A DNA stretch of 51,858 nucleotides from Psammoneis japonica. Lineage: Eukaryota. The notes beneath the pieces are model-generated. The model did not search any database. It was not told the DNA's origin and worked only from the letters and a program-made list of their open reading frames with translations. Position 1 is the stretch's first letter. Each line of letters begins with the position of its first letter. Made by a program: the position numbers and the translations under genes. The stretch lies in the NCBI GenBank assembly GCA_008632985.1, contig QPGO01000340.1, forward strand, positions 1 to 51,858, given 5' to 3'. Shown one piece after another: positions 6,931 through 50,525 of the stretch.

Positions 6931-7187
6931 GATCCCGGTTTCAAATTCTTAAACGTCGTAGTTCAGATGGCCCTCTTTTTAATGTGCAATCTGCGTGACA
7001 AATGGGGACAAGGTTGTGTCTGTTAGAACAATGGGATTGTTTTCTTTTCGCACTGTAGGTTCTCGTTTTCGTTTTTTTATGAGTTGCCCAGAACATAGGT
7101 AAACACGGACGAGGAAGAGAGGGGAGACTGTATGACAAATACATAGGGAATTAGTTGGATTTATGTCGCAAAACGCGAAGCTCTCTA

Positions 7188-14306: not shown

Positions 14307-14535
14307 TCCAGAGAGGGGGCCAACGTCAGTTGCCGCGAAAGTGGTGCGGATGAACAGAGGCAGCCTCTAAGGCAGTTCCAGATGCTGAAAAGTGTCAAAC
14401 AGCAAGCTGCACTCCCGCTTGTATGACAAATGCACTCCAGAGAGGGGGCCAATGTCAGTCACCATGAAAGTGATGCGGATGAACAGAGGCAGCCTCTGAG
14501 GCAGTTCCAGATGCTGAAAAGTGCAAACAGCAAGC
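14279..14535. repeat. Tandem duplication, unit about 129 bp
   Basis: GACAAATGCACTCCAGAGAGGGGGCCAA..GCGGATGAACAGAGGCAGCCTCT..GGCAGTTCCAGATGCTGAAAAGTG..AAACAGCAAGC occurs twice. Variants include cagtTGcc/cagtCAcc and cctcTAagg/cctcTGagg. Confidence 0.9.
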
Positions 14536-16578: not shown

Positions 16579-16816
16579 TGTTGGAAATGGTGAATTAAAA
16601 GTTCAATCACCGAAATTAGATGGCGCAAAGAAGATGCATGCGTCAGCACTCATGTGCTCCACGTGAAGCACTAAAACTGCCGATGGAAGCAGTCATCATT
16701 CTCTTTTGACTCTCAGAAAGCATTGTGATAACAAGCTTGTCTATTTTGCCCTCAGGATCAGACCTCAGAGGACTGAGGTGGCTCTGGAACAGTCGCCAGA
16801 AGGATAAATTACAACA
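16579..16816 (+). repeat. Probable 5' LTR of the adjacent copia element
   Basis: Starts TGTTG (16579) and ends CAACA (16812-16816), the typical LTR terminal inverted repeat, about 100 bp upstream of the gag ATG. No second copy in the window to confirm. Confidence 0.5.
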
Positions 16817-19800: not shown

Positions 19801-19860
19801 GAAGAACAAGACAAGACTCAAGAAGAAACCCACAATGATGAGCAACTCAGAGACAATGAT
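16579..19860 (+). mobile_element. Degenerate, 3'-truncated Ty1/copia (CoDi-like) LTR retrotransposon: gag-protease-integrase present, RT/RNase H missing
   Basis: Gag from ATG 16919 (MSGRGRGR), zinc knuckle KCHCCGKAGHNSNKC (about 17950-17995), protease ILLDNQST (about 18206-18230), integrase IHCNNEF and AQEHVPEAERNN. Several frameshifts and stops; systematic Tyr->His/Cys. Confidence 0.88.
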
Positions 19861-20218
19861 GCTTGTGACTTTGACAATGCACGTTGCTGGGAGCATTGCA
19901 TCGCGCTGCGTGCATCAGAGGCAGCTGCTTCCCGACCATGACGAATCTCAACTGGAGGAAGAGGGTCGTGATCAGGATGTGCGACGCGAGTTCCATCCTG
20001 CAAAAATCGAGGATCCTGAATGTTCTATTGTGGCTTTGCCTGAAACACATTCAGGGGAGGAGTTAAACCATACGTGCGTAAAGATAGAAGCCTAAAATTT
20101 ACATTGTTGCTTCTGCTGTATGGGTGCAGGTGCTGCAGGCCATCTGCTGGCTAGTTGGCCTCCTGCAACAAAACTAAACGCACGCGTTGGATTCAATGCT
20201 GCATGCATCACACATTTT

Positions 20219-26200: not shown

Positions 26201-29200
26201 CACTTTTCGCTGCGATTCATTCAACCCATTAAAAACAGACAAAGGAATTTCTTTGTCACTATCCTCGGCAACTTCGACGAGGTTTTCACGCTGCATTACT
26301 TGATGCATGAAGTCGCCGGGTGCCGGGCGAGACATGAGACTTTCAAGAATCCGCACGGTCCCGCTTAACGAAGCAACACGTCGCACGTAAGAAGTTTCAC
26401 CCAGAGGCACGAAATTGTGGTTTTTGTCTTGCATAAACAAGTCTCTGCTTCTCCCACCGGCTGGTCGGCAAACTGCCAATTCCCCACCTTGCTTGTAGAA
26501 GCTAGACTTCAGAAGAAAGACGTCATATGGTCGTGGAATGTCTTTGGATCCTTTCCGGCTATCATCCTTGATGGAATCGGACAGGGATCTAAAGAATTCA
26601 ATGCACACAAGGTTTGACAGCTTATTGAGGGCCGCATGATCCAGCACTTTGAAGTCGATGGTCTCGTCCGCGCTGATCACTGCACGTTTACGGCCGAACA
26701 CCACCTCAATCAATCTGCTAGTGGCATCATCGATAGATTCGAATGTGTTCCCGTCAATGTCCTCCAGGTTCGAACCACCTCCGTCCATGGGATTTTCCAG
26801 GCGAACATGCCCTGCCCGAATGCCGTGTGTTCTTTTGCAGGCATCGCTGCAATACCAAACGTACGGGCAAAGCTCACACTGATGACCGGCCCTACCAAGG
26901 CATATTGCGCACACTGGGCCATCCAGATCTGGCAGAGAAACGAGTTCTTCCGCATCCCCGGTAAGTTCGTTTTCAGAAGAGATCATCTGTACGCCCGGGT
27001 GGTGCTTTTTCAATGCTTTGTCTAGGAGTGATATCCAGTCTAGCCATTTCCTGTACATTATTCCAAGAATTGTGTGAGAAACTCTGGTCTCCTTCCCACC
27101 GGTCCCCAGTCTGGCGCTTTGAATGCTGCAAGGATGCTCTCCATTTCTTGACGGTCACTTCTACTGATTTGTGCAGCATGCTTCCTAGAATCCAATGCGC
27201 GCTGGCATAGGATTGCCATCCTGGTAGCTTCAGGGGAGCTTGGTCCCAGTTGGTCGGCAACCCGAGTCCACGCCTCGGACGATCGAGAGACAATGTCTCC
27301 TAGAGCCATCATGCTGCCGAAAACTTGCAGTTGATTTTCCTTGAGCGGAGCTGTACAAGCTGAGGGTGAAAAGACGCGCGAGACATCAATGAATCTTTTA
27401 CTGTCCGGAATGGGTCCCTCGAGTCTGCTCCCAAAGTCATGAGGTGAAGCTGGCGAAAGTTGCCCAAAGATTCTTTGCTCATGCATGATGAAGTACTCGT
27501 CCCCATCGCAGTCCCCCCCGGCAAGCATATCAGCCAATGGCCGGGCACCTCTGGCACTAAGCACCAACACGTCTTGTAGATACTTGAAAACGTAAGGCGG
27601 TTCCTTCTCTAGTTGCCCTTGGACAGCATAAGCGCGCTGTATGTCTCCAGGCATGTTACACGGCGAGCGGCAGATAAGCACAGAACCCTGCACAGCACCA
27701 TTACCAACTAGTACTTCACCTTCGTCGAGAATACCGTGTTCATCGACAACAGCCTTCATCAAAGTTATGTGACTCTGAAGACTGACTCGGGTCTTTGCCT
27801 TGGTCATTGCCTTCTTTAGTGCGACTAACTCCTCTGGGGAGAAACGATCACCGTTCAGTTTTTTCCCCTCTAGTGTGACCATATTCACGTAGTCATGGGT
27901 TCGTGTCATATCGCATTGAGCCTTTAGTCGGTCTAACCCGTCGTCAAACTCGGAGGCCATTTCAGCACATGCCACAGCTTGGAGGTCCAGAAATGGACGA
28001 GGGGGGACATTCAGATAGTGCATGACGAGTAAAGCCTGGTTGAATATCTTGTTGTCGGTGCTGTTCTTCGCTATGGCAATCTCCTTTACTTCCAGGATCA
28101 TGTGACTCGATCGAAACTTGACCATACTTGGTCTCAATCCAATGCAATCCGCTGGAAAACCCCTTACCAATGACAGCATACCTTTCACCCCACCCATACG
28201 AATCTGTATCGCTCCTGGAACCTTGGAAAGCTTGAAAACTGCTTGAGCTTTCCTTGCAATGTCGATTCCCATCACGCCACAACCGTCGGAAAAAATGTAG
28301 TTATTCCGGATGATTTCTTCGATCGCAATGATTCGACCCATCGAGAGGATGTCTACAGGCTTCGTATGCGTAAACGCCAAACCGATGCGATCGCCAACTT
28401 TAGTTTCGACGATGCCTTCAAAGCAGCCCAAGCTTCCCAAGAACTCATCTCTTGAAAGAAAGGACTCGCAATACAGCCAGACCTGTGCGTATCCCGAAAC
28501 AAAGATTTTTCGTAAGTCACAAAGCCACAACGTCGAAGTATAGGCCCGTGTATGACCATACTTACATTTGGTTTGCCAATGCCTTTGTCAAACAGATATG
28601 AATACTTTCGACCACACAATTCCGGTTCCCTTGCCAACCACGGCGCCAGCTCTGTGTTGTACAGTCTATCAAATTTGACGGAGCTGACAAGGACAAAGCA
28701 GTCTCGAACACGCCATCCCTCTTCCCGTAGCGCTCTGCGACTGTTTGGAACGACACGCGCATTCTTTGTCAGATTCTTGTTATTCATTTCGTACTCGGAG
28801 GGAACAAGTCGAGCGCTTCTGAACTGCAGTTTAGGCGGAGAACCCCTATACTCCGTATCCACTACTATCTTACAGCGATACTCTGCTGTTGGCCACATTG
28901 ATCGCTTCTGAATAATGTCAAAATCATTGTTGTCTCCATAGTCAAGGTCATCTTCTTTAGCATCCACGAAATCCTCTGCCTTTGCCAAACTTTTTGCTGC
29001 TCGCTGCAATGCAGATTCGACAGCTTCTTCCCAAAACTCAAAGCCTTTTCCCTTGTCCATAGCTAGCTTTACTTGGCACAGAGACTCCCAAATCTCATCG
29101 GCGAACAACTCTTGAATCGTCCTGCCCCACTTATCCCAAGAAATGGCCAAAAGCGGTGGGAGCACAATCTGCATGTACACCAAGATCAACTTTCGAGCTC

Positions 29201-29803
29201 CAATCTCAACAGTGCTCTTGATCCCTTCGTACTCTGCAGGGCTCTGAGGTCTCTTTTTGATACGCAACCGATCTGGCGCATCCTTCATGAGAATCGATCT
29301 CTCAAGTTGGAATCGAAGTGGAAAAGGAAGTGCCGAAGCGGCAGCTCGGAACGATAGCTCAAGCCGCGTCTTTTGGGCCAAGATGGCTTGTTCCTCAGAC
29401 GATGACTCGCGCTGCAACTTTTCTAAGCTGCAAAGGCAGCAGCCATTTCACTCTCTTTTTTGGTGCTTCCAACCCCCGTACCAATCAGTGATTCGTTGGC
29501 CTCGTGGACGACCATACTCTCAAACGTAGGGGCATGAGGTGGTCCGTCCTGCTTGGAGAGCGTGTACGTCGGTGGACTGTGATACATGCGTTCACAAAAG
29601 AGCTGCAGCTTGCCTTTGTAGTTATCACTGCTTATAGCGGATGCGGCATTTAGAGCTGCAGTCGACAGTGCGGTTGGATTGGCCAGAACAGGAAGCTCCA
29701 CTTCTTCGGGAAGCTCCAAGAGAGTATCATCATTGTACTCGCCTAGCAGCGCAACAAAGACGGGGTCGTCTCTCGTCGCGTCGTACCAGTGGTACTGCGC
29801 CAT
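20219..29803 (-). CDS. Giant RdRP-helicase fusion protein: dsRBD - RdRP - zf-MYND - UPF1-like helicase - (RelE-like) - TRANK1/UvrD-like helicase - TPR-like - SH3-like - acidic tail; 8 exons, about 3,010 aa
   Basis: Exons 29803-28566, 28482-26133, 26059-25408, 25328-24109, 24031-23478, 23395-23300, 23225-23023, 22939-20219. Introns are 73-83 nt, all phases are consistent, and splicing restores split motifs (GPPGTG|KS, LDTQ|YRM, FQS|VYVDEVQD, AG|DTAQMI). The model needs two 1-nt insertions in short homopolymers (about 29425, AAFAA-LEKLQ; about 27105, PDWG..SHTILGIMYR). Confidence 0.85.
21880..24200 (-). other. TRANK1-like UvrD/SF1 helicase followed by TPR-like helices
   Basis: SRSGTGKT, FITVSPRL, YVDEVQDF, GDTAQMISAGCSF, LTRNYR, ESKGLEFDDV, LRELYVATTRGR, then TPEMWFSRGMELFDEEKFSVAVGCFNAAG, as typical of TRANK1-family proteins. 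Confidence 0.88.
24830..26230 (-). other. UPF1/DNA2/NAM7-type SF1 helicase (AAA_11 + AAA_12)
   Basis: LNESQ, QGPPGTGKS, APSNAAV, ILDEAGQ, VGDPKQL, LDTQYRM, IISPYTAQV, TVDSFQGQE, NRMNVAVTRAK. Confidence 0.95.
26825..26911 (-). other. zf-MYND-like zinc finger
   Basis: CAIC-x7-CELC-x4-YCSDACKRTH. Confidence 0.75.
27040..28700 (-). other. Cellular (eukaryotic) RNA-dependent RNA polymerase domain
   Basis: Motifs KVGDRIGLAFT, FSDGCG, AIQIRMGGVKGML, LRPSMVKF, VVDEHGILDEGEV, RSPCNMPGDI, DMLAGGDCDGDEY (catalytic DxDGD at 27499-27513), and ILGIMYR after the indel. Confidence 0.95.
29415..29623 (-). other. Double-stranded RNA-binding domain (dsRBD) of the fusion protein
   Basis: NYKGKLQLFCER..PTY..GPPHAPTF..GTGVGSTKKESEMAAAFAA(L) matches the dsRBD consensus. 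Confidence 0.9.
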
Positions 29804-33595: not shown

Positions 33596-34099
33596 AACAC
33601 TTGTGTTTTCTTTTCTCTCTCTCTTGCTGTTTCTCCTTTCCCCGTGCCAGCAAAATAAAAAAAACAAGGGTCAGTCACTGTTCTTCACAGATTCTTGTAG
33701 GTGAATTACGTAGCGGTAGTGGCTAATGAATTTGCCGTCATTGCTTTACTCACGTCAATCTTGTTTCTTATGGCTGATGAGTTCAAGTTTCCTGCGACTT
33801 TCTCGGTTTGGGTTCTCGATGCCTTTTTTCTTTTTTTGAAACAACTTATGTTCGGTGATCTACATACATTCTTCTTCAGAATGAATATGTAAATAAGGTC
33901 ATCGCAGTGAGAGTTCTCATTAGGAACCAATCAGATTTCTCCATTTCCATTAAATCTTTGAAATCGTTAAGTGATGTTTAGCACACATGATGTCTCGGCG
34001 ACACTCTACAGTAGGCCCTTACGTACGGTACGACACATAAATGTTTCAAACACGTACAGGGCGCAGAAAATGTCTTTCGTTGCTTCACTCTTCCGCTCT

Positions 34100-37000
34100 G
34101 CCTGAAGGCCGCGCCTGTTTGTGGCTTTGTGCCTTGCAGTTTGTGTGTCGGCAACAATGATGCCTCTGAAATTATCCACCCACAACAGAGACACCCAATT
34201 GCCCGGCTGTCATTGTGGAGCTCTTTGTCTTCTGCTCCAACCTCTTTTGATGGTGGGAGTCTCCAGAGTGGGGGTCCTTGCAGCACACGCGCACGCACCA
34301 TGCACAAAAACAAGGCAAAGAAATCACACCATGAGTGGTTGCAAATGTGGCACAGCACAATGGTTCCATTGGAAACCACAGCTGTTGTTCTGCACTGGAT
34401 TCCTTTTAAGACAGGCCAGCATTGCTGAGTGCGAGGAGCAGAGTTCAGCACTTTCTGGCAACCAGGGTGCACTCTCTGTCGTCCAGTGTCCGTGCCAGCC
34501 ATGGCAAACAAAAGTTCTCTCATTGCCAATGACAGCTCAGCTGCAGCTCAATTTCAAGCAGCAAAGCCAAATTTGTCAGAGGCATCAACAAACTGTCATT
34601 CACGCAACTCTGTCAGCGGCAGCTTGGGGGTGCCCTCTGGCCTTTTTCCTCTGCTCCTGGCGGCATTGTTGTGCCATCAATGCAAGTCTGTTTTTCTTCT
34701 TTCCTGCCACTGAGGTTGCTTCATTGTTGGAGCTTCAAACTTTCCACACCATTCTTGTCTTGATTTGCTGCTTTCCAAGTTGATGCTCAACTTTGACTTT
34801 GTTTTGGAGGAAATGAGCTCCTCTTTTCTTTGTCGGATGGTGGACTGTCAAGTGTGCTGCTCAATGAGAGAGGGTTGGATTCATTGCAGTGAGCCAATTT
34901 TTCAAGGCTCACCAAGCATGTGGGTGTCCTTTGCCATTGGCCACAGAGTTCAAAACAAACATTGCGAAGCAACGTTGCAGAAAGCTCCAGAGGCCCTGCT
35001 CGAGTGCTGCAGACGAAAGAACTGGGGGTCAGGTTCCTGGCTGAAGTTGCATGTCTCCCAAGCACATGCCATGCATCTAACATCACTGTTGTTTGCATTG
35101 GTGAAGTTGATTTGTCTTCCTTTGCTGACAAAGTGGACTGGATTGGCATCAATGCCGCAGTTGCGAGTGGGTGTCATCACAACAAGATGCCAAACAGCAC
35201 GTCTGCTGCCTCCCATCAGAGACCCAATTGTTGTGACATTGGCCCTTCTGGTGGCCGATCAAGCAGTTGTGACAATTTGAAAGAGATGGCCATTGGACTT
35301 CCAGGTCATGTCAAGCAACCTAGAATCCAAGCAGTGCAGATGAGGTGCACACACAACCATGCATTCGTTGATGGTTTGGTGTTGACATTGTCCAGATTGA
35401 CGGGCATCATGGCCAACATTGCTCCATGGGTTCCTGCTGGACAATTGCCCTTTCAAGACAATTTGCACCCAGATTGTCATGCTGCCTTTGACCTCATTGC
35501 AAGATCCACTGCAACATGAAGAATGGATCCATCAGCAGCATTCGTGGCACATCTTCCATTGAAAATGACCCAATCACCAGGGAGCTCATCCAGCATGGAA
35601 TCAATGTGCAGGTGCACAAAGCCATTGATGACATCTGCACAAACTGCATTGCCAAAGACCCAGCTCTTGACAATCTCTTGGAAAGCTGCTCTGCTTGTGA
35701 TCCAAAAGGACATTGAATGTCCAACAAATGGTGGGAAGGACAAGTTCACAAATGGACACCAGGCTTTCCTTGTGTCCACAACCAGTGCAATCTTTCAGCC
35801 TGGGCAGTTGTGCAATGTTGTTGCATGATTCAATTGTGTGCTTTTCATTGAAGTTCAACCTCAAGTTTGTTGAAATCAAAATGATGTCACTCTGTGAATG
35901 ACGTGCTGAATGTCTGTGTGCAATGGCTGCACACTTGGTGTTGGATGAAACTTGCATGCTGCTGCTTTTGACACCATGAGACTCACTGTGTGTCATGCAA
36001 AATGAAATGTTTGGTTGCTGTGTCACTGAGATGATGCCTGCCCAATTCAATGCATTCAAGCAGAAAGGTTTGCATGCAACACAGTCTTTTCACTGATGGG
36101 GGCAGTCACTGGACCCAGCTGACAAGTTGGCAAGGAAGATGTGAAAGTCACAAGTCAAGATTCAGGCAAGTGCCTGCCTGTGTGTTTGGAGATGCCATGG
36201 CAATGACCATCCAAGTTTGACAAAACAACCCAAGTCATGCTGCAAAGATTTCCCTGAGGTCACAGCTGAGAAATTGAGTGACAGCAGCAACCTTGCTGCA
36301 ACACATTCTATTTCCATGAATGCACAAATGGGTTTCCTCCCAGCTTGCATGTCCAAAGTTGCCCTTGTCAAGACAAGTGCACCAGTGATTGTTTCCATCA
36401 ACAAGGAACTTAGCCCATCAGATTAATTGAACTCTGAAAGCAAAATCCAGTTGTTTGCAAAAACTCTTGTGCATCATCTTTGAGCCAAAAAAGGACAGGT
36501 GGAGTTTCACCATGATTGCTGGTGTGAGGCCTTCCTTTGTGAAGAAAAGAAACAACACAACTGTCAAGAGTTGGAATTCTGGTGGGATGCTCTTTGTTCA
36601 AGAACTCAAAGTTTGTGTTTGAGTGGGTTTCTTTGGACAAAACACTGACAGTCCCACCTGGAACAGATTTTGTTCATGTGGAGAATGCAGGCAGACCATT
36701 GACTTCATTCCTTTTAGTTGTGACAGGTTGAAGTGGAGTGAAGTTGCAAGTCATGTGGACATTGGTCTGCCAAGCAATGGAAAGCTGCCCTCTCCCATTG
36801 ATTGCAGTCCTTGGAGTTTCCCAGGGAACTGTTGGCTCCCAAGACATGGCTCACACCACCAGTTGACCATGAAGTCAACTTGCTGCAACCCCTGTCAGTC
36901 ATGACAGGTGGGAACATCTCCCAGGATGCACTTGGCAAAGCACTTGGTGGCACTAAAACAAGGTGAAGTAATTTTCACATTGCATTTTTTAAAAATGCTT

Positions 37001-40000
37001 CAACTGGTGTGTGTCATGCTGTGCAACAACAGTCAGGCAGCAGCACTGTTGAGTGCATCATCAAGTTGAGTGGGAGTGCCCACATGGCAATGTGGCTGTG
37101 TGATGTGACATGAGTGGGAGCATTGACATGGCCATGTTGTGTGAGTGCTGGTTTGTGCCACCAACACAACTGCATCACACCACCATGACCACTGATTGGT
37201 CTGTCTTGCTGAGTTGAGTGTGACCATTGAAATGCATCAAGCCCATTGCAGCAGATGTGGGTCCTTCTGCATGTGGTCTCCCACACTTGGAACAATTCTC
37301 TGAAATCCATTGCAGTGGTCAGTTTCCATTGCTGGCACCTGAGTCAAAAGAGTGAAACTTTTGCCATGGATGTCAGCAATCACAGCATCTGGCAGCTCTG
37401 CAATGGGTGACACACTGGGCATGTCAACCAGGGGCACATTCTGTGACTCAAAAACACCACAAAGCATGCTTGGCTTTGGCATTGAGAGGTTGTGCACATT
37501 GTCAGTCTCTGCTTCAGGCTTTCCATCACCCTCATTGGGTTGTGCAATTCATCAAAAGGGCAATCTTTGAAAGGGAGGTTGTCTTCTCTGGCATGGTCTC
37601 TGCAGTTGAGTTCCAAACAAAAGCCCCCAGCAGTGTTGCTGTCACTGTCATCCCCATCATCAGCATTTCCAACTTGGGACATTTGGGAAAATCTGATGAT
37701 CTCATCATGGTGGTCCATGGGCATGGCACACTTGATTGCCAAATCCGCTTGTTCTCTCAAGCAGCTCTGCAACAAATCAGCTGCTTTGGCTTCATTGAAA
37801 AATGACTTCTCTTGCAAAGTGGTGGGAGGAGGCAAAGTTGACAGGTCAAAGTGGTGGGCGGCATCCTGGGGCCTTTGATGGTGTCTTGTTCTGTTAAATT
37901 TTTCCCATCATGTTGCTTGTCTCCTGTGCATGCATGGTGAAAACACTTGTGCCACCAAACAAATGGAAACATCATGATGGGTGAAACTCTTGAAGGTTGC
38001 ACCGAGCTTGAACAGCACATCTTTCATTTGGTGACTGCAGCACCCAAGTCCAGTTTGATTGAACTCCAAGCAGCTAAAGTAGAGAACTCCATTTGCATCC
38101 ATTCTGACCATGTGAACTCAACAAACAAACTTTGGAGTGCACTTGAAGAAAGTGTTTGATTCCAAGTCTTCACCCATTTCCTCTTGAGGCCTTCTTTGGA
38201 CTTTGTCTGCAGAATGGAAGAGATTTCCACCAATGATTTGGGATGCCCTCAGCTGGGGTCACAACAAGGTGGTCAGTCATTGGCAACTTTGACCACAGGC
38301 ATTTTGTGTGTGCCAAGTGACTGGAGGCAGCACACAGCTCCATTGCCTTCATGTCTAACTGCCTGGCAAGCTTGAAGGTGCTTGTGGCCAAATTGTGTGA
38401 CAGCAGAACAGGAGCGGAATGACTCTTCATTCCTGAGTTTGTTCCCTCATGTCTGGAGCTGTTTGCCTTTTCTTCAATTTGTCACACTGTCACCATGTTG
38501 CCCTTGTGAACCATCAACACAAATGGCAAATGAAGGAACATCTAAAGCAGAACCTTTGAAACCTTCAATCCCTCACATTGTTCTCACAACCACCCAGGCA
38601 TGCATCTGAGAGCACAACCAGGCCTTGTGAAGGACACAAGCTGTTTGTGGTGTGTCTTCTTGCATCCTGCAGGTCCCACACAACTGTCTCCCGGGCAGAT
38701 GTGTGTGTCCAGCCTGTCCTTTTTCCACAATGTGCCACCATGGCAGCACCTTGCTTGAAATGTGTGAGGCATGTGGGTGGCTGTCACTTTGACACAGGAG
38801 AGAGTGTGCTTTCATTTGACAGAGTTGGCAGCACCACTTGAAAGACCCAGCAGAAGGTGGGCTGTGTTTGGTCTGGCCTGGCAAGTGCAACCTCAGAAAC
38901 ATGGAGCGCTTCCATCTGGCGCCCTTGCCAAAAATGTGAGAAGGACATGCTTCTTCTCATTTGAGTGGGAAGTTGCATCAACTTTCACCACATGGCAGAG
39001 CAACATGAGAAAATGGCACTTTTCACAGCTCAATTGTTCAGGCAGTGCCAACAAAAAGATTGTCACAAGGATGGAGATGCATGGAGTCATGTTCATGCTG
39101 ACACAGTGCTGGAACCTCTGAGCAAGCTCCTCCAAATTGCCATGCTTCATCAAACAAAAGGGATGACTGGTGATGCAGATTTCTGTCATGGTTGGGTGTT
39201 CTCTGCTGAGTTTTGACCGCTGCCCAAGATGCAGCAGTTAACATCATCATGACTCACAAAGAGGTGCTGCAACTCAGATGCACCTTTCTTGGGAGGAGCT
39301 TCCTCCTCAGGAGGGAGAATTGGTGCAACAAGATCTTCTTCATCATCAGCATGCATGACATGCTGCATCATTTGCTGATGGGTCAGGAAGCAGTCTTTGT
39401 TTGCTAAAACACAATTTTGCACATGAGCAGTGCCCAATTGTCCCTTGCACATCCACTTGATTGCTGTGATGCTTGCGGATTTGAGCTCATAAATCTTCTT
39501 TTGCATCTCATCCGGTGCTTGTTTGAGGTGATTGCACTGAGCAAGACAGCTGGCTCCACATCAAAAGAGGCAATCATCAAATGAATTGCACTTGATTGAG
39601 ATGTTCCATCCACAAGTGGATGCAGAGTCCAAGCTCTTGCTTGTTTGCTGGTGATGATGTTGCTTTTTGTTGCCTTGTGCATTGTTGTTTCTGTGATGAT
39701 CATCCAGAAAAGAAGGCTTGTGGTGCTTGCCCTTCTCTCCTGCCCTTGCATGTTTTTGGTCTGAGTCAGACTGTCAGGTGTGTGCCAAGCATGACTGACA
39801 CAACACTTGGCTGCTGTGGTTGGCCGTGATCTCAAAACCAGTGGATTTTGCTGCAGCACAGCCCAAATGCAGCCACGCAGCATGGAGTGCATCGCATCAT
39901 CTTTGCTGCAACCTTTGACTCTGTTTGGCTGTGATCATGGATGTTTTCATGTCATCAAAGCATGCAAGCAATTCTTTGTGAAGAAATGGGCTTTGTTGTT

Positions 40001-40880
40001 GGTGGTGAAAGAGGAGCACCATCTGGGCAAAAGTGGGTGGGGGAGTGTTTGCTGGTGACAGCACTGCACAAACTGGCAAAAGGAGAGGGCTGTGCCAGTC
40101 ATCTTCAAGACAATTGAAATGACTGTCAACAAGCTCTTCATGACTTGATGTGTGTCCTCATCCCAGTGTGGCCTCTGCCCCATGGCAGAAGAGGAGGACA
40201 ACCCCTTTGCTGTTTTCATCAAAAGAAGAGTTTGTCTTCATCAAAAGCTTCATCATCTTCATCAAAAGCCATCATGGCAAGGAGGTGCTTGCCATGCCTC
40301 CAGCAAGAGTGCTTGCACTGTCAATGGCATTGGGGCTGGGGATGTGCCACTGGATTCAAACAGGATTTTCCAAGCCAGAGAGACAGGGCAAAACCACAAA
40401 AATTTTGACAACAAACATGATGTTGGCCCGCAAATGTGGACACAACATGCAAAGTGGTTTGCCAAAATGACTGCTCTTGCAGCAAAGTGTTTTCAGGTTT
40501 GCACTCTTTTTGTCATGTTTGCAGTGCACCACCCCTTCAGACATGAATGTGTGTCCTTGGCTTCAGCCTCATCGTGGGTCCCTGCAAATGTGGAGGGTAA
40601 CCCAGAAACCTTGTGAGTCCTGCGTGCAAGTGCGGGGACTCTTCACGTGCATTTTACACCAGAGCTGCAGCATTGCCAGTGAGCCAGCTTGGTGGCTTGC
40701 TCGAATGGGTGGGGGGATTTTGGAGAAAGTGGATGCACACACATCTCATGCACACCAGCACAAAGCAGGGTGAATTGCAACTTTTAAGAACGTGCAAATG
40801 GCCACAGCAGAGCTGCAGACAAAATGCAATGAGCTGCCATCTGTCAGAGCTGAACAGTTCCTCACTTGTCTTGCACAGCA
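34100..40880. mobile_element. Heavily decayed repeat/TE block depleted of both TpA and CpG; family not recognisable
   Basis: No TA or CG found by eye in 37021-37740. Only short Cys/His/Trp-rich ORFs. Abrupt transition from normal composition near 34.0-34.15 kb. Confidence 0.65.
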
Positions 40881-40914
40881 CCCAAATTAGACTGAATGCA
40901 AATGCAAGCCAAGC

Positions 40915-41259
40915 ACAACAAGGATGAGTGCAAGATCAATCATGCTCACTGTAAATGCATGTGACCAAACAAACAAAACACACAAATGTTGTCCAAACTT
41001 GTTGCAAACAAGCCATTCCAGGCATTTTTGTTGAGTTCCAAGCAAAGGCATCGTGCACATGTGATGCAAAAGTGGCTCCAATGCATCCACACAAGATGGA
41101 TCACACTCACTGCAAATGCATGTGAGCCAAACAAACAACACACACAAATGTTGTCCAAACTTGTTGCACACAAGCCAACCTCAATCGAGGCATTTTTTGT
41201 TGAGTTCCAAGCACAGAGGCATCATGCACAAATGACATGACAGTGGCTCCAACACATCC
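40915..41259. repeat. About 165-180 bp tandem repeat, left part (2 copies)
   Basis: Unit contains CTCACTG[TC]AAATGCATGTGA..CAAACAAAC..ACACACAAATGTTGTCCAAACTTGTTGCA..GTTGAGTTCCAAGC..GGCATC..GTGGCTCCAA. Confidence 0.9.
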
Positions 41260-44200
41260 TCTTAGTGGATCGTGTCATTCCCACTTAGATGCAGCACATC
41301 TGTGCTGTGCACTGTGCACTCACATAGAATCAGCACTGGAGCCTGCAGAGCACACTGCAGACCGAAGCACACATCACGCGAGTCGTGTGGAAAATTTTCG
41401 TTGTGATGTTCCTTGTTGAGCTCCAACTCATCTCTAGAGTGGGAAACAACTTGCCCGACTTGATGCCAGAATGACACATCCAAATGAGAATGGCAACAGT
41501 TCCTGAGAATTCAGGACATTCTTCATCATCCCAAACCATGAAATGAAGATCCTTGTCATCACGCTTGCCACGGATTTTGGCACAGAGACCCTTGACGGCA
41601 TTCTCCGACACTTGGCAGCACTTGGTGACAAACTTCTCAACCGTCATCTCCAAAACCTCTTCGCAGCGTAGAAATGACTTTGCACCAACAACAATGACAG
41701 TCCAAAGCATTGGATGACACTTGTCATTGTGTGACAAACAGCAGCCTCGAACAGCCCGCACCTCGCCCGGCAAGAATGCAAAAGCACTTCTGGCTTCGCA
41801 GCAGTTCGATGCATGGTCTTGCCATTGGTCAATTGCAGCCTTGAAATCTTCATGTTTGGTGGCATTTCCATATGCCAGAAATGGGGATCACCAGGGTGTT
41901 TGCGGCATCCAGTGCCCTTTCGGGCTTCATCCTCGCAATCTCACGACAATCAGCACACATTTCTCTGTGTTTGCCATTGGTGTTTCGCAGTGCTTGTGAA
42001 GCTTGCTCATGGCAGTGCGGAAGAGCCCAGTGGAAGAATGACCTTTCCAATCCCCAATGCAGGTGATGGGGTTTCCACACCGGTCCTTTGCTGGAGCGTT
42101 TGTGCAGTTGTGAAGCAGTGGTTTGCCCTTTTGTTTTGTCCTGAACTGAGCAAACTGGGTTGCTGCATCCAAATTCAAAGGAAAAGGATCTGATGGACAC
42201 AAGTCACATGCCGGCAGCATGGCACTTTCAGAGTCACCAATGGGGCAACAGAAGTCACGAAAAAGCCTCCATGTGGGTTCATGCCGTGCAATGGAACTGG
42301 TCGCAATGGTGTCAGTGCCTGCTTCGCCGGTCTTTTTGTTCTTCCCTGCAATTGCAAGTTTTGGTGACGTTGTGTCTAGCTTGTGCTTTGTCAGCATCTT
42401 GTTCAAGCTCGACTCACCAAGAGAGCGGGTTTGCTGCATTATGTTGAATCCGCCGCCCTTCAAAACAACGTAAGATGCCATCGTCGAGTGTGTGTTTTCT
42501 GTCTCGCGAACGAGAAATGCGAGTTTGGGTTGATTTTCTTGTGGCGTGCCCCTCGAGTTTTTGAATGACCCTTTGGACAAAGCCACTTGGGGACGAAAGA
42601 AAGTCAAAATTTGCTTGTCAGTGCACCGGTGTGCACCGGAAATTGTGCCAGTGCACTTGAATTGCACCGCCCCCTTCAACTGAGCACACGTCACCATCTC
42701 AAAATGTCAACCCCCCTCTGGTGCCTGCAGACACAGGGATCTCTGTCAGGTTGTGAGCAACGCTTACACAGACGTGCAAGCAAGGCTCCTCTGCCACTGC
42801 TGACAACACATTTTCCTCTCGTTTCATTGTCGACGACACCGGCAGAGAGCGTTTGCATCATAAACTTTGCCGCTCTGTTGACGACAACGACGTCCGCGTA
42901 TTGGACACTGATTCACGCCATTGCCGTTTGTTTTTGTGGCTGCTTGCGTGGGCATCAGTGTGCTTTCTACGTACGTTGCGATCTCCTTGGGTCCACACCA
43001 CAGAGATCCGATCCATGCTGCCCCTGCGTGTTGTAATGACATCGATTTTTATTTTCATTGTCGATCACCATGGCGCCTGCTAACAGCACCCGTTCGAAAA
43101 CGGCATCCTCTTGGCGGGCCACTCTGTCGTCACTCCAGGCCGCTGTGTCACCAATGTCGGCCGACGGCTCCCAAGTCTCTCCTCCTCCGGTGGAGACTGG
43201 CCCAACATCTGCTGGCAACACAATGGCAGAGGATGCTTTGGCGCCTCACAATGCGCCCATGGCAGAGGACGCAATTGAGGCTGAAGCCACATTGGCGGTG
43301 AACATCACTGCTCCGGAAGCCGACGCGATTCTTGCACAGACGGACACCGCCGATTCTGTGTCAGAGCAGCCGGCGCCACCAGTGCTGCCAAGCTTCCTCC
43401 ACGCTTGCCGCCTGCCCTACCTCCTGAATAGCCTCACACGCCTCCTGGCACTCCCCCGATGCCTGAGGAACCTCCTGACCCTCCACACTCACCTCCGACA
43501 TCGACGCAGGCTCTCCTCAAGACGTTTGAGAGCAGTCTCACATCAGCAGTTGCCCGCATTCATGAACACAAGCGGGCACTAGATGCATCTGTGGAAGAGG
43601 TTTCCAAGCTAAAATGGGAGCTGCGCGAACTCCATTCGGTCACGAACAATCATGCCTCGGCCATTGCGGACCTCAAACATGCTCGTGATTTCAAGCTCCC
43701 ACGAACCGAGGTCCAGACCCAGCTGAAAGCAACTGCGGATGAAGCCATTGCTTTGGCTGGAGATGCGGCCAACGAAGCTTTGGCAACACGTGATGCTCAA
43801 TTCTCAGAAGCTCTCGACAAGAAGATTGTCCCATTTACGAAGCAGCGGAAGCTGCGATCCTCAAATGCATCCATTCTGCTGCGACAACTGCACACAACAA
43901 CATGGTGTCTTTTGTGGCGGAACAAACCAGCCGACTAGAATCCGCTGCTTTGGAAGCCATCCGTGCTGTGGGAGACCACGTCGGTGCAACCCGTAAAAAG
44001 TTCCAGGCTCGGATCAAGCATGATGTCAAGCTTCACATGGATGACCTGGACATCACCCTTGCCCATTTGGACTCCACCAAGAAAGCCACTGAGCAGACAA
44101 TTCAAAATGGCCTCAGTGTGGCCAGTGCCATGGCAGACATCTTGGAAGACTGTGAAAACGCTGCCGCGCCCTCTTCTGCGGTTACATCATCTGCTCCGGC

Positions 44201-47200
44201 CACAGGAATCCAATGTGTCACAAAGGACCACCTTGCGGACACACTGAAGGACAACTTGGATGGACTCCAGGCTCAGCTGATCTCACAGCAAGATGCCACT
44301 CAAGTGCATGCCGGCAAGATCAAACGTGCCACTGATGCATCTGAAGCTGCCAGGCGTGCGGTTGCTGGGGTTCAGAAGGAACTGGGCAAATGTCGATCGG
44401 AGTTGTCGACTCTGACGGCAACCATGTCACCCGCCACTCCGGATCCTGGACCAACGGTTGCAAAAACGCATTGCTTCTTTGTTGAACAACATCGCTGATT
44501 GTCTCATGACCTCGCCCGATCCCACGACATCTCCGGCAACCCCGGTTGTTGGCACCAATCATGCTGCTGCGAGCAAACCAGCCTCCTCATCGGAACGACA
44601 CCACAACTCCAAAACCTTCCGTGAGACCCCCGGTCCCTTTCTCCGCTCCATGGAACCCAACAACATCGCACTGTTCCTCAAAGGCATGCACACACGGTGC
44701 ACCCAGGCCAACATTCCCATCCGGGATCCGGACACTCTTGCTTGTGAGAAGTCCGACTTCTGCAACCCGATGTCAGCAAGCACATCCCATCGTCAATGCC
44801 ATGCGATTGAGATGCACTCGAAACTGGTGCAGGACAACACACTTCCGGATCACCGATTGTGCGAAGGATGGAAAAAGACACACGCAGCGTCGATGGATGG
44901 TTTTGCGATGCTCAATCACCTCGCTGCTCTTGGCCTTCCACCCCTGACGGGCAAAGCAGTCAACACCCCGTCCTGGAAGGGTGACCTGTGTGAGCTTGTG
45001 GTGGAATTCACCATTTGCTTTGCCACCATTGAAGCCTCACATGCCAAGATGGATCCCACTGCACCCCCGGCCTGCTCGGAATGCCAGAAGTCTCTCAAAT
45101 TGCTGGAGGCTGTTCCAGCCGGCATGCATGAACCAGCTCTCCTCCTCAAACACCATCTGAATGAGATTGGGGACTCTGCTCCCTTGCCCCATGATCTGCA
45201 CCTGGTGTCTCTTGTCACACAGATTGACCCCAGGCTTGCTGCGAATGCTGACCCGATGGGCTCCTTGAGTGCATTCCACGGCCGACCATCTCACGGCCGC
45301 CAGTCAGCTTCACCGGATCGACAGCACACCCCATTCCAGCCCCGGAAGGATCTCATTTGTGATGCTTGTGGAGCGCATGGCCACAGTCACTTTAACTGCA
45401 CCAACCCAGCCCGCACTGCATTGCTGCTGGATTTTGTCAAGGTCAACACGGAGAAAGTCACGTCCATTGTCTCTAAATGGCATTCCCACAACAAACGCTG
45501 AAAGGACACACCACGCCTGACTGCCCGTCCATTTGCGGCAGATGTTTCGAGTGACATTGTCGATTGTGTGATGGATGAAACAGCCTTGGACCTCCCATTT
45601 GAGTTGGGTGCACCTCCGGATTTTCTGCAAGCCGGCCGCATGCTCCATCCATGTGTGGTGAACGGCTTGCCAATGGCTGCGGGGCAGATGATCAGGATGA
45701 CACATCGTCTCTGCCTTCCGCTGACTCTCCGATCCCCACCTCAGTTTGTCGCTCTTTCGCATCCAGCATCCCATGCTTTGACCAGCTCCCGGACTGGAGT
45801 CATTCCGGCCATCCTTCCGATCTCGCTTAGCACGGATTCGGATTCTGCGACATCGTGCTCGACACCGGACGATGACTCACTTTCCCTGTCGGACGAGTCA
45901 TGGGCTGCGGCGGTCGAGGATTTTGCCGAAGACCCTCAGGCTGCCCTCCACTGCTTTGCGATGAAATTTGAGTCCATGGAGTCCGTCACTCCTCCCACCA
46001 TTGTGCTTTCCACGGCTCTGGCACTGGAACATGAAACCGCGCCACTGCCCACCTTCCACCGTGCCAGCATTGGGAACCTTGCTGCGGACTCTCCAGTGGA
46101 AGCATCCGGGCAAACGGACACTGGTGCCAACTGCAGTGCCACATCCCAACGACACCTGCTTGCCAACTGTCGCCGTTTTACGAATCCCAAACCCATGAGC
46201 ACAGCATCCGCGGCCGACACCCACACTCACAGCGCTGGGTGCAGGCATGCACACCATCCGTGACATGGACAATTGTGAGTGTGATGTCCTGATGTTTTGC
46301 TGCCCTGGGCTGGGTGAAACCCTGACCTCCCCTGATCACATGTGCAGAGCGTCCAAAGAGCAGTGCAACCAATGCCATGCTTCGCATTTTCAGGATTCTG
46401 GACACGGAATGCCAACGGTGACAATCATGACCGTTCACTTGTCCGGTCTTTTCCCATGGTACGAGCAAATGGCTTGTGGTTTATCCCACAACTCCGCCCT
46501 GATGCACCCCCAACCGACGGTTGCACGGAACTGGAGGGTGCCATGCAAACATTGTGGATGCATCCACCAACATTGAGAGACCTTGGACATGAGTTCGATG
46601 TGCCTGATCCTCCCGGCAAATGCGAACAACTTGACTCTGATGTCCCATCATCCCCTGCGCCCATGGACCCTGTCCCCGAACATCCCAGCAACAGTGAGGG
46701 CCCGTCCAATGTTCCAGAACCACAACTGTCCTCCCTTCAACGCATCACCACCAGCAACTTGGCACCATTGCCTGGGTCACCCTGGCATGCACCACTGTTG
46801 TACCTGCGCCGACATGCCACAGGCATCCCATCATCCACTGATGCCACACCTCATCCCCATCGATCATGCTCTGCATGCAATGATGCCTGGCACAGGCACA
46901 CCCCCATGGGATCCCAACAGGACGACATGGACTTGGACCCAGCGGCATTTCCAGATGGACTGTGGGTGTGTGCGCACTTCTGGGCCGGACATGAAACCAT
47001 GCTCGAAGAAACAACGTGACAAGGAAGGCATTGAGCGCATTGTTCAATCACATGATGGGTGCAATTCGTGCCTGCTCATCATGGACGCTGAGACTGGGCA
47101 TGCGTGGGTGTTCCTTGCCCCGAGTGAGGACCCACCAATTGAACTGGTGGATGCTTTCTCCTGGCTCGGCACAAGTGCACTGATGGCACACGCACGGTTG

Positions 47201-50200
47201 GGGCAGATCAAGGTGGTGAATTGGCCCACTCTGAGGAATTCCGGAAGGTCTGCCTGAAACACGACTGTGTCATGGAGCCTGCCGGCGCGGACGCCCCGTG
47301 GCAGAATGGCAGGGTTGAGACATTGAATCGGACCTTCGGGGCAATGGTTTGAGCTCTGCTGTGCTCATCGGGTCTCCCGGCCACATGCTGGGCCGATGCA
47401 CTCACCCACGTGGTGCACCTCAAGAACCGGCTGTGGCACTCGGCCACAGACATGACTCCACACCAGGAATGGATGGGTGAGGTTCCTGACTTGTCCCATC
47501 TCCGAGCGTTTGGATCTCACATGTGTGCTCGGCGTTCTGGCAAACCGGCTGCTAAACTGGACAAACATGCCTTCCATGGTGTCTTTGTTGGATGCTCGGC
47601 TGCGGATGGCAATGTGCGCCATGTGGATGCCACATCCGGACGAGAGAAGTCTACTCCGCACGCCACTTGTGACGAGGCCCACTTCACTCAACCGATTAGA
47701 CCTCCTGGTCCACAGCTCTCATTCGATCTCGGCATCCAACAGGTTGCACCTCCATCCCCGCCTCCACCACAGCCAGCGACCCCAGCACCACATCCCCCCC
47801 TTGTGCACAACAAAGGCTTGTCTCCACCCTCCCCGATGAGCCTGATCCAGGGTTTGCCGCTTGGTGAAAACGCATTGTTTCCCGAGGACCAATGTCACGC
47901 GATGGCTGCTGCTTTTGTGTCCAAGGACCCCGTCACCCCCGAATCCGTCACCAATGTTGTGATGTCCTTCGATCCGTACGACGACTCTTTCGATGCACCT
48001 TTGCCCAGCCGTGGGTCTAGAAAACCACGATTGGGTTTTGAGTTTGACTGTGACCCCCGCCGCCATCGCCTGCGACTCCATCACTGTCGCCCTGGATCAC
48101 GGGCAGCGAGAGTGCCACGATGGCGATCCGAGCTCAAACGCTTGTGCCTCATCGCAGTTGACACTCGGCCTGTCCACGATTTTGCTGACCTCAACCGTGT
48201 GTTAGAAGACATCAATCCGGATGCTCAGGACATTGTTCTCGTTTTGCCCACGACTGCCGGTCACCGACCTTGGACACTGCAGGATTGCCACAACTGTTTT
48301 TGGACCAGATCAACCATGTCCGCCATCAGCTAGACTCCCTGCATGACCCTGCTCTCCCTTCATTGTACAAGCTCACACGCCGGAAACTCCAGATGCAGGA
48401 AGACTGGCCGGACTAAGAATCGGGTGAATTCAAACAGCTTGACATGTGCAACAGCCAAGGCATGTTTGGGGACCCCATTCCTGCCCCTCCGGGAGCCACG
48501 GTGTTCCCATGGGCATGGTCATGCCTGGTTAAGAACGATCTGACCCGTGCCAAGAAGGCCCGTGGAGCATGCGATGGCAGCCCCAGAGCTGGATTTGTCC
48601 AGACAATGGCACAGACATGTGCAGCGTCTGTTGAGCAACCTGGCACTCGCCTGTTCTTTGCTTTGGCAGCACTTAAGAATGAACGGGTGTGCGGCATGGA
48701 TGTCAGCAACGCCTTCGCTGAGGCTCCTCCTCCCAAGCAACATTTCTACATGAGAGTGGATAAAGTTTTCCAAAACTGGTGGACCAAGCACCTGGGTTCC
48801 CTCCCATCCCCGAGGGCTGCGTGCCACCTGTGCTCCAAGCTCTACAAAGCCATCCAGAATCTCCCCGCTTGTGGAGCATGCATGTGGATAAGATCATCCG
48901 TGAACACCTGCATCTTGCCCCAACCACCCATGAACCATGCATCTGCAGTGGTGCAGTGAACGGCAAAGAGGTGCCATTTCTGTGGCAAGTCGATGATTTC
49001 GCCATTGCTGCGGACTTGGACGCAACATGTCAACGCACATGTGACATTGTGGGTGAACATCTCACCTTTGGCAAGAACAAACATCAGGGCTTGCTCACCC
49101 TGTTTCTGGGTTATGATGTTGAACAGACCAAAGACTGTGTCCGGTTGCACAGTGCCTCGTGCATCAAGAGGATCTTGGCTGACTGTACTTTCCTGACCGA
49201 CGACAAACTTGGCCCGCCTCCCGCCATCCCGATGCCCGGCGACACCTCCCACTCCAAATCCCTCGATGAGGCTCCCACTCCGGCCGACTCCAAGGCATCT
49301 AAAACCCTTCAACAACAACAGGGTTTCTCTTGTTGGAAGGCGTTGGCGAATTGACATGGGCCATGGTTGCCACCCGCGTGGATCTCAGCTGCTTGATCAC
49401 CAAGCTGAGCCAATTCGGCTCTAATCCTGGACAACTGCACTGTGAAGGCATGAAGAACTCTCTCCGGTGCCTCGAGCATCACCCCGACTTTGGCCTTGCG
49501 CACTGGCATCAACAACCTAACCCGACGCTCCCCCATGTTCCTCCTCCACCTCCGATGACTGTGCCCCATGACCGCGCACCGCTGCCCCCTCAGGCATCAT
49601 CTCTTGCCAAACTCACAGGTTGCAAGGACTCTGATTGGGCCGCCGACATCCGACACCGCCGCTCGATTGCCAGCATTGCGTTTCTCCTTGCAGGAGCCGC
49701 AACAGCATGGAAGACCAGAGTGCAACCAACTGCATCAACCTCTTCATCGGAAGCTGAGTTTGTCGCTGCATCGGACGCAGGCAAAATGGCACTGCATCTC
49801 CGGTCTGTCATGGATGAACCATTGGTCTCCCCCAGATGCAAGTTGCGTCGGTGCGAAGACAATGATGCATCCCAGAAGATGACCACTGCCAGCCAACCCA
49901 CCTGCCGCACCCGTCACATTGACATTTGCCATTTCGCTCTACAAGACTGGGTCGAACGCAACTTGGTTCGACTGGATCGCATTGACACACCAGCCAATTG
50001 CAGCGACATGCTCGCCAAGAATGTGGCGCGCATCTTGTTTTTCCAACATTTGGACACATTGAGTGGACATCACTGTCCATCCTACATGCCAGACAGCAGC
50101 AACAACACACCACTGCACTGTTCACTAGAAGAACAGTGCACCCAGACTCACAGGGGTCACGATTCTCCTGGTGTGGGGGGGTCTTGGTGGATTGTGTCAT

Positions 50201-50228
50201 TCCTGCTTAGATGCAGGGATCTCTGTCA
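41260..50228 (+). mobile_element. Full-length but degenerate Ty1/copia (CoDi-like) LTR retrotransposon with 5-bp TSD CATCC
   Basis: TSD CATCC at 41255-59 and 50229-33. LTR starts match (41260 and 50182) and LTR ends match (CAGGGATCTCTGTCA at 42734-48 and 50214-28). PBS-like GGTTGTGAGC at 42749 and G-rich PPT at about 50170-81. Gag ATG 43070, knuckle CDACGAHGHSHFNC, protease DTGANCS, integrase DQGGE and PWQNGRVE, RT DVSNAF and QVDDF, RNase H DSDWA, EAEF, EDN, TRHID. Confidence 0.93.
41370..42700 (-). mobile_element. Crypton-like tyrosine-recombinase element fragment nested in the 5' LTR
   Basis: Frameshifted ORFs (41927-42697, 41330-41773) with WRLFRDFC..GDSESA, FLRCEE (catalytic Arg box), RGKRD (Lys) and GKLFP. 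The C-terminal HxxR/Tyr part is not visible. Family assignment is by motif recall only. Confidence 0.55.
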
Positions 50229-50525
50229 CATCCAACAACAAGAATGAGCACAAGATTAATCACACTCACTGTAAATAAATGTGAACCAAACAAATCAAAC
50301 ACACAAATGTGTCCAGACTTGTTGCATCAAAGCAAATCCAAGCATCATTGTTGAGTTCCAAGCAGAGGCATCATGCAAGAATGACACAAAAGCGGCTCCA
50401 AGAATGTGCCCAACAATGAGAATGAGCACGAGATTGATCACACTCACTGTAAATGAATGTGAACCAAACAAATCAAACACACAAATGTCGTCCAAACTTG
50501 TTGCATCAAAGCCAATCCAGGATTC
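50229..50525. repeat. About 180 bp tandem repeat, right part (about 1.7 copies), same family as 40915-41259
   Basis: GAATGAGCAC..ATCACACTCACTGTAAAT..TGTGAACCAAACAAATCAAACACACAAATG..ACTTGTTGCATCAAAGC occurs twice and is co-linear with the left copies. Confidence 0.9.

Follow-up and report, generated by a model that had tools for sequence, protein, structure and literature searches.

Loss of TA dinucleotides from a copia retrotransposon and other blocks of a 51.9-kb stretch of DNA, consistent with TpA-directed hypermutation

What can strip long blocks of DNA of the dinucleotide TA while the genes lying between them keep theirs? This question is raised by a 51,858-nt stretch of contig QPGO01000340.1 (hereafter the window, meaning the whole stretch analyzed), which carries a degenerate Ty1/copia-type long terminal repeat (LTR) retrotransposon at positions 41260-50228. 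An earlier note, made from the letters of the window, had pointed to a run without TA inside this element and to conserved copia tyrosines replaced by Cys or His, and it had proposed a repeat-targeted mutation of TpA to TpG or CpA that inactivates transposons. We determined the extent, ancestry, timing and context of the TA loss and compared it with known systems. The results make it likely that silenced selfish DNA underwent A:T>G:C hypermutation in place, directed at TpA.

TA-depleted segments were called across the window with a two-state segmentation that scored whether each T was followed by A, and dinucleotide abundance was expressed as the observed/expected ratio (O/E). Four depleted segments were found (2207-4011, 7196-7679, 9796-20024 and 34071-50080), covering 28.5 of the 51.9 kb. 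The TA O/E was 0.03-0.11 in these segments and 0.50-0.70 in the intervening, gene-bearing normal segments, in agreement with the earlier remark that the neighboring genes use TA normally. The pooled counts were 159 TAs per 28,676 nt of depleted DNA and 888 per 23,132 nt of normal DNA. The depleted segments span 0.5-16 kb, each with a TA O/E of at most 0.11 and TG and CA ratios of 1.46-1.93. Their parts outside the copia element and its satellite surroundings were as follows (ratios are O/E).

2207-4011: TA-poor block with a 360-nt tandem duplication inside; TA 0.07, CG 0.68
7196-7679: short TA-poor segment; 1 TA in 484 nt
9796-20024: TA-poor block without assignable source; TA 0.11, CG 0.36
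34071-40914: block with TA and CG both nearly erased, no protein domain found; TA 0.05, CG 0.12

The pooled O/E values of the four pyrimidine-purine (YpR) dinucleotides were:

TA: 0.09 in depleted DNA, 0.55 in normal DNA
CG: 0.44 in depleted DNA, 0.92 in normal DNA
TG: 1.75 in depleted DNA, 1.21 in normal DNA
CA: 1.62 in depleted DNA, 1.20 in normal DNA

The shift was limited to these four dinucleotides, the remaining 12 differing by no more than about 0.1 between depleted and normal DNA. In the depleted DNA, all YpR steps are pushed toward TG/CA. Counted per kb, there were 1-12 TAs across 10-20 kb and 34-50 kb and 22-64 elsewhere in the window, and the TG and CA O/E reached 1.5-2.2 within the same TA-poor stretches. 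The longest TA-free gap, 44183-45393, measures 1210 nt; it coincides with the run at about 44185-45392 that had been noticed by eye, although four further gaps exceed 900 nt and the depletion is far wider than had been claimed. This gap was longer than any found in 200 first-order Markov simulations (100 per chain), in which the longest TA-free gap was 583 nt for the whole-window chain and 424 nt for the normal-segment chain. CG is indeed abundant in the run, as had been stated, with 50 per kb and an O/E of 0.67 in 44001-45000. The depleted domain ends within a few hundred bases of the adjoining open reading frames (ORFs).

The last segment contains the copia element, whose proposed borders were confirmed by a flanking 5-nt duplication. 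The element and its surroundings are laid out below.

41255-41259 and 50229-50233: target-site duplication CATCC, 5 nt, read directly
41260-50228, + strand: degenerate Ty1/copia-type LTR retrotransposon, TA O/E about 0.1, recognized by tblastn and the target-site duplication
41260-42748, + strand: 5' LTR, 1489 nt; 35 nt at its start and 13 nt at its end align with the 47-nt 3' LTR
42749-42758, + strand: motif resembling a primer-binding site (PBS), GGTTGTGAGC, with TA changed to TG, from comparison with related loci
43060-45500, + strand: gag-like region ending in CX2CX4HX4C, which we take to be a zinc knuckle; contains the 44183-45393 TA-free run
46100-50100, + strand: pol, with protease (DTGA), integrase, reverse transcriptase (RT) and RNase H; 21 of 22 conserved Tyr gone
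50155-50181, + strand: purine-rich, polypurine-tract-like run directly before the 3' LTR
50182-50228, + strand: 3' LTR remnant, 47 nt, with three dinucleotide differences from the 5' LTR
40915-41259: tandem satellite of about 178-nt units, TA-poor, left of the element
50235-50521: satellite of the same family of about 178-nt units, right of the element and outside the depleted domain, TAs kept

The class features of Ty1/copia are present: integrase before RT and RNase H, LTRs, a 5-nt target-site duplication, a PBS-like motif and a purine tract. The two satellite stretches match at 78%, and the copia element is inserted within the array. For comparison we used seven intact polyproteins of 1196-1432 aa, with precomputed Pfam matches to PF07727 in 7/7 and to PF13976 in 6/7. 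All seven were collinear with 46100-50100 in tblastn, on the + strand only, and were 44-49% identical to the RNase H part. The pol region matches PF25597 at 47353-48333 and is broken by four or five frame changes (near 47158, 48200-48215, 48782-48788 and 49321-49339). The Ty1/copia relatives from marine protists (P0001-P0012 and L001-L080) have the same protease-integrase-RT-RNase H order, 5-nt target-site duplications and a PBS of the GGTTATG[AG]GC type. In contrast, the window copy is dead and frame-broken, its Tyr codons are erased and its LTRs are unequal (47 nt at the 3' end, 1489 nt at the 5' end).

These relatives allowed us to ask whether TA was lost or had never been there. Conserved positions were defined as the 531 sites at which at least five intact relatives agree, and Tyr sites as the 22 positions at which at least five agree on Tyr. 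At the 22 Tyr sites the window has Tyr once, Cys (TGY) 13 times, His (CAY) three times, Phe four times and Thr once, whereas the other residue classes among the 531 positions are conserved at 35-88%, most of them at 57-88%. The earlier claim of systematic Tyr to Cys or His replacement thus holds for 13 plus 3 of the 22 sites, but two of its examples do not stand: the position in "HLKNR" is natively His in 4/7 relatives, and that in "TPY" is Phe in 4/7. Base changes were inferred only where a single change was unambiguous, and they fell into the following classes.

A>G: 27 inferred, 21 with 5' T
T>C: 14 inferred, 12 with 3' A
G>A: 21 inferred, 13 with 5' C and 1 with 5' T
C>T: 5 inferred, 3 with 3' G

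Thus, 33 of the 41 A>G and T>C changes fall in TpA. The excess of 5' T among A>G (21/27) over G>A (1/21) was significant (Fisher p = 2.5e-7), and with the Tyr codons removed it still was (A>G 8/14, p = 9e-4). The proposal that A changes to G in 5'-TA on both strands is borne out by these counts and by the presence of both TG and CA outcomes. A metagenome scan seeded by two conserved peptides gave 80 related loci, none with a TA O/E below 0.47 (range 0.47-0.89), a scan from which heavily decayed copies may have escaped. The intact relatives keep their Tyr, and no TA-poor copy is among these loci. Nine of ten GGTTRTGRGC matches in the related loci read GGTTATG[AG]GC, mostly right after an LTR-like "...aaca" end, and the window reads GGTTGTGAGC there, as the earlier note had held. 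As the relatives retain Tyr and TA, the TA loss in the window is derived. The inactivation that had been proposed is real: TpA to TpG/CpA change has destroyed the coding capacity of the copia element, and the genes beside the depleted blocks are spared.

A distant copia relative among the metagenome loci (L070, GC 0.68, TA O/E 0.50) also carries a PBS-type motif with TG replacing the usual TA, GGTTGTGGGC, at 5179-5188.

The next question was when and where the changes arose. The LTR ends (35 aligned nt) differ at three dinucleotide sites only, and all three are YpR (TA/TG, CG/TG and CA/TG). LTR ends are identical at integration, so these later differences indicate mutation after insertion. The satellite, which is not a retroelement, tells of the same process: TTAATC in the right-hand copies is TCAATC or TGGATC in the left, depleted copies, and TAAATAAATG in the right-hand copies is TAAATGCATG or CAAATGCATG in the left ones. 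TG and CA outcomes are intermixed along pol (16 runs, 16.3 expected), and the depleted domain continues through DNA without any retroelement signal. Given these four observations, the process acts in situ on chromosomal DNA, after integration and on both strands, whose hits are not clustered.

The bases around TA influence its fate. We expressed context survival as the TA frequency in depleted DNA relative to the normal segments.

ATAT: survival 0.012
ATAC/GTAT: survival 0.015
ATAG/CTAT: survival 0.055
GTAA, GTAC, ATAA and CTAC: survival 0.11-0.15
CTAG: survival 0.28
CTAA: survival 0.38
TTAA: survival 0.48

The trinucleotide survival was 0.05 for TAT, 0.10 for TAC, 0.20 for TAG and 0.24 for TAA, and TAT and TAC lay below TAG and TAA in each of the three large blocks. 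A 3' pyrimidine was found in 25/27 inferred A>G changes, 13 of those being Tyr codons. Sites of the form TAY (Y, pyrimidine; RTA on the other strand, R being purine) are thus lost more completely than TAR sites. In the intact relatives, 1058 of the 1527 sense-strand TAs are TAY and 692 are RTA; this surplus and the TAY preference explain why Tyr to Cys is far commoner than Tyr to His. Outside the Tyr codons the strand outcomes were 8 TG and 9 CA. An asymmetry between transcription strands (TG O/E over CA) was considered and dropped, the raw pol counts being 390 TG and 407 CA.

CG is also reduced in the depleted DNA, to an extent that varies from block to block (ratios are O/E).

Copia internal part: TA 0.13, CG 0.67
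2207-4011: TA 0.07, CG 0.68
34071-40900: TA 0.05, CG 0.12

On the assumption that each block started at the TA and CG levels of the normal segments, TA was lost 4.7 times faster than CG in the copia element, 6.7 times faster in 2207-4011 and 1.2 times faster in the saturated 34071-40900. The TA and CG losses are therefore uncoupled and represent two separable processes. The CG loss resembles 5-methylcytosine deamination in methylated transposons, with which it shares CpG>TpG/CpA decay: a C directly precedes the changed base in 13/21 G>A changes, and the CG O/E falls to 0.12. That deamination is unable to remove TA, and blocks with a TA O/E of 0.07-0.13 are still at a CG O/E of 0.67-0.68. The earlier statement that 5-methylcytosine decay removes CG and not TA was correct, but CpG decay also runs in the same blocks as a second process.

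Copy number and reliability of the sequence were assessed with contigs of the one public run found to contain this DNA, designated X1, assigned at a threshold of 80% likeness; 914 contigs lie over the multicopy part. No RNA data set was found to contain the stretch. A single contig of 8481 nt at depth 63.5 spans 34000-40964, departing from the window at 18 letters and by 8 gaps, and 0/16 listed substitutions restore TA. Pieces of the TA-free run are likewise reproduced, with differences at 3 letters in 43755-44393 and at 6 in 44380-44914. The summed contig depth over the copia part is 230-750, compared with the single-copy value of 63.5. The block 34000-40555 is single-copy in run X1 at 80% likeness, a threshold past which old copies may have diverged. 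Differences between copies are available as the 40 best-supported of 1933, which are not a random sample. Among these, the multicopy part has 24 changes that make up 20 events: five have TA in other copies where the window has TG/CA, six have CG in the others where the window has TG/CA, one has CG in the window and TG in the others, four are CA-versus-TG doublets and four are of other kinds. We considered reading the doublets as proving that an ancestral TA had been hit independently in different copies, but rejected this, since the doublets would look no different had the ancestor been CG.

The contigs join 50181 to 41260 and 41281 to 42730, and both long and short LTR forms therefore exist among the copies. 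The 5' LTR interior, 41282-42729 (about 1.44 kb), is absent from the 47-nt 3' LTR; the 5' LTR may have received an insertion, or the 3' LTR may have undergone a deletion. Two minus-strand ORFs inside 41282-42729 had no Pfam match. Several contig joints place the satellite array elsewhere in the genome as well, in other registers.

How does this pattern compare with what is known? The earlier note knew of no description of such a system, which is outdated: Mettrop et al. (bioRxiv 10.64898/2026.01.13.699255) describe TpA-only A:T>G:C hypermutation, though not in diatoms, in mutation-accumulation lines of Bigelowiella natans. In a full-text literature search, TpA loss by hypermutation was described only in this preprint and in no paper on diatoms. 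According to its Results and Discussion, 231/302 mutations fell in two integrated viral regions, and 230/231 were A>G or T>C, all on TpA. Mutations arose at about 6e-7 per site per generation, about 1000-fold above background, and in episodes; 11/15 lines were affected, and the main target was a single-copy viral insert. The same source reports 124 clusters of TpA-poor, CpA+TpG-rich windows, TpA-depleted coding sequences enriched for RT and DDE domains, and an AT-biased background spectrum against which the TpA process is local and episodic. Its authors propose an ADAT2-like DNA adenine deaminase, for which a candidate was found and its function not assayed (bioRxiv 10.64898/2026.01.13.699255).

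The window shares with B. natans, as described there, the TpA>TpG/CpA change on both strands, the discrete blocks, the low TpA with high CpA+TpG, and transposon domains of the RT/DDE type. There are also differences. The window holds a historical footprint, whereas the B. natans work measured a rate. Its identifiable target is an LTR retrotransposon with satellite, rather than a giant-virus or virophage insert. The depletion is deeper, with a TA O/E of 0.05-0.13 compared with a Rho of 0.45 in the reported region from nucleocytoplasmic large DNA viruses, and CpG decay accompanies the TA loss. The window has a preference for TAY over TAR; the Results and Discussion of the preprint give no extended context. 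Finally, the window genes are intron-poor, and the proteins they encode were not found in the collection searched. The B. natans reference genome is intron-rich. The window probably comes from an organism other than B. natans.

Repeat-induced point mutation (RIP) of ascomycete fungi is similar in being a dinucleotide-specific transition mutagenesis of DNA that disables transposons and skews TpA, CpA and TpG. Its direction is the opposite, as the earlier note had recognized: RIP turns CpA into TpA (C:G>T:A), whereas in the window TpA is destroyed, down to an O/E of 0.09, and CpA/TpG are raised. The RIP machinery is cytosine-methyltransferase-like and would not yield A:T>G:C. RIP also depends on duplication, and in the window the copia element is multicopy while 34000-40555 is single-copy at 80% likeness. 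The most depleted block is thus single-copy at that threshold and has no recognizable transposon domain, and the main B. natans target reported in the preprint is single-copy too; for these reasons repeat sensing is not demonstrated, and the description "repeat-targeted" goes beyond the data. Silenced or foreign DNA fits better as the target. ADAR and APOBEC3 editing in animals are related in being deaminase-type hypermutation against selfish or viral nucleic acids. However, they act on RNA or nascent cDNA, before integration and on one strand, whereas the changes in the window are on both strands, came after integration and extend to DNA other than retroelements. APOBEC moreover gives G>A/C>T, and the window A>G.

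We consider in-place, TpA-directed A:T>G:C hypermutation of silenced selfish DNA to be the likely explanation. Context, direction, action after integration, involvement of both strands and confinement to discrete blocks are seen in the window itself; an enzymatic defense aimed at silenced or foreign DNA is what we infer from them. The copia element, the host satellite and the adjoining unassigned DNA would have been mutated in the chromosome from TpA to TpG or CpA, by A:T>G:C transitions at TpA on either strand, with TAY (RTA on the other strand) hit hardest. This process would halt within a few hundred bases of the neighboring genes. A slower CpG>TpG/CpA process, typical of 5-methylcytosine deamination, would act on the same DNA, and the two together would wipe out the Tyr codons and the PBS and leave TGA as the sole possible stop. 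By analogy, the pattern would be what TpA-restricted hypermutation, as measured in the B. natans lines, leaves behind over long times. As to the chemistry, adenine in DNA might be deaminated to hypoxanthine by an ADAT2/TadA-like enzyme, a tentative proposal that we regard as quite possible; the earlier note and the preprint both put forward an adenine-deaminase route as a hypothesis.

Several points weigh against this explanation. Three of the four depleted blocks are without assignable source, copia and satellite being present only in the fourth, and the window gives no clue to the enzyme. TA is palindromic, so whether A or T was the base attacked is not readable from the sequence. The CA-versus-TG doublets between copies could reflect ancestral TA or ancestral CG alike. 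The TAY preference is read from surviving sites and from 27 inferred changes, 13 of them Tyr codons, and a footprint of this kind looks the same whether left by a slow long-term process or by bursts. Run X1 may be the window's own source sample and would then not be independent. CpG transitions are also mixed in: the near-pure A:T>G:C spectrum reported for B. natans is replaced by one that includes 21 G>A and 5 C>T, mostly CpG, plus transversions. A mixed spectrum is expected, because an old footprint sums all processes, and the same mutator is still compatible with it.

The palindrome leaves room for a thymine-directed process, in which the T of TpA would be modified in silenced chromatin, for example by TET/JBP-type oxidation to 5-hydroxymethyl- or 5-formyl-uracil, mispair with G and change to C. 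All context counts fit attack on T in RTA equally with attack on A in TAY. 5-Formyluracil is mutagenic toward A:T>G:C, and base J and 5-hydroxymethyluracil favor TpA in some protists. No evidence in the window bears on such a modification, and the candidate named in the B. natans preprint is ADAT2-like, with its function not assayed, so we judge this route improbable. A different source of A>G would be editing of the retrotransposon RNA (ADAR-/ADAT-like A-to-I) or of its cDNA before integration, fixed by reverse transcription. In its favor, Tyr to Cys, which is A>G on the sense strand, occurred 13 times and Tyr to His only 3 times, and ADAR-type enzymes disfavor a 5' G and favor a 5' U (as cited in bioRxiv 10.64898/2026.01.13.699255). 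The Cys excess is explained by the TAY preference alone (1058 TAY and 692 RTA of 1527), the non-Tyr outcomes are equal on the two strands, and a 3' pyrimidine is present in 25/27 A>G changes. ADAR prefers a 3' G. Moreover, LTR ends that were identical at integration differ at YpR sites, and the satellite and blocks without retroelement signal are mutated as well. Editing before integration is therefore extremely unlikely.

It might also be asked whether any dedicated system is needed, since unconstrained DNA could drift to a TA- and CG-poor equilibrium by ordinary context bias while selection holds the genes. Genes, too, have fewer TAs than expected (O/E 0.50-0.70), and the depleted blocks are old enough to have frame breaks. 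However, the borders are sharp, with genes no more than a few hundred bases away; TAs persist in satellite units directly beyond the block, whereas units 9 kb away inside it have lost them; and TA was lost about 4.7- to 6.7-fold faster than CpG in the copia element and the 2-4 kb block. For B. natans, moreover, the preprint reports an AT-biased background spectrum and a TpA process that is local and episodic (bioRxiv 10.64898/2026.01.13.699255). Drift of this kind is very unlikely to be the cause. Finally, a sequencing or assembly artefact, such as a modified base miscalled as G or C, has to be considered, as the stretch is known from a single study with no recorded library type. The same TA-free sequence recurs in the contigs built from run X1, whose word depth is about 63; the changes occur together with CpG decay and frame breaks and lead to Cys as well as His; and TA is readable in this family, other copies in run X1 carrying it at some sites. 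We find an artefact barely credible.

Genome defense by mutation of A:T pairs is almost unknown. A second, deeper footprint on a retrotransposon and satellite, in what is probably another organism, would make a B. natans curiosity a candidate general mechanism. It would also supply parameters open to test, namely the preference for TAY over TAR, the marking of both strands, the sharpness of the borders and the uncoupling from CpG decay. One could go further and imagine a widespread, ancient eukaryotic defense, not confined to one chlorarachniophyte, in which a chromatin- or small-RNA-guided DNA adenine deaminase that prefers TAY works beside cytosine methylation and erases integrated viruses along with retrotransposons and satellites in marine protists of unrelated lineages. 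The window would then hold the first footprint of this defense outside B. natans and the first on an LTR retrotransposon; this extension we hold to be rather doubtful. A natural DNA adenine deaminase, should the agent prove to be one, would be of interest for base editing.

The TA loss has consequences for annotation too. Without TA, the stops TAA and TAG are impossible and TGA is the sole possible stop, which results in long spurious ORFs in all six frames. Spurious ORFs and transposon proteins without Tyr defeat domain searches, and gene finders would over-call TA-free blocks. A 679-aa ORF at 12330-14366 (- strand) had no relatives among 1.84 billion representatives and was treated as a by-product of stop-codon loss. 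Pfam was run on 113 ORFs of at least 90 aa from the three ranges holding depleted blocks; two matched (DUF7934, DUF4407 and Toxin_18), all below the curated cut-offs, and these matches were taken as chance. Scans of the window for tRNA and Rfam families found nothing.

Within the depleted blocks, tandem or near-tandem duplications of 80-93% identity were observed at 3130-3480 / 3491-3852, at 14278-14535 and at 11239-11342 / 11577-11680. A 50-nt inverted repeat (7180-7229 / 9366-9414, 96% identity) encloses about 2.2 kb, has its left end at the start of the 7196-7679 segment and may represent the ends of a DNA transposon.

The genes of the normal segments are long uninterrupted ORFs of 773-936 aa. 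At 4459-6948 (- strand), an intron-free ORF of 829 aa contains a complete beta-propeller domain (PF09826, E = 2.8e-108). Its relatives are 27-39% identical (the best 32% over 85% of the query, 39% locally), those with names are bacterial (a metagenome-assembled genome of Actinomycetota), and the gene may be of bacterial origin. For neither this protein nor the RNA-dependent RNA polymerase (RdRP) described next was a near-identical protein present in a collection of 5.8 billion proteins; a protein-atlas search with the RdRP yielded no informative taxa, and looking up the clusters of the seven copia relatives yielded neither accessions nor organisms. At 24105-29447 (- strand), a large gene made up of about five long ORF segments encodes an RdRP domain (PF05183, E = 2.5e-71), a MYND finger and a helicase of the AAA_12/UvrD type. 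The best RdRP relatives are 48% identical and have the same fusion of helicase and RdRP; this gene, of the RNA interference type, lies between two hypermutated blocks.

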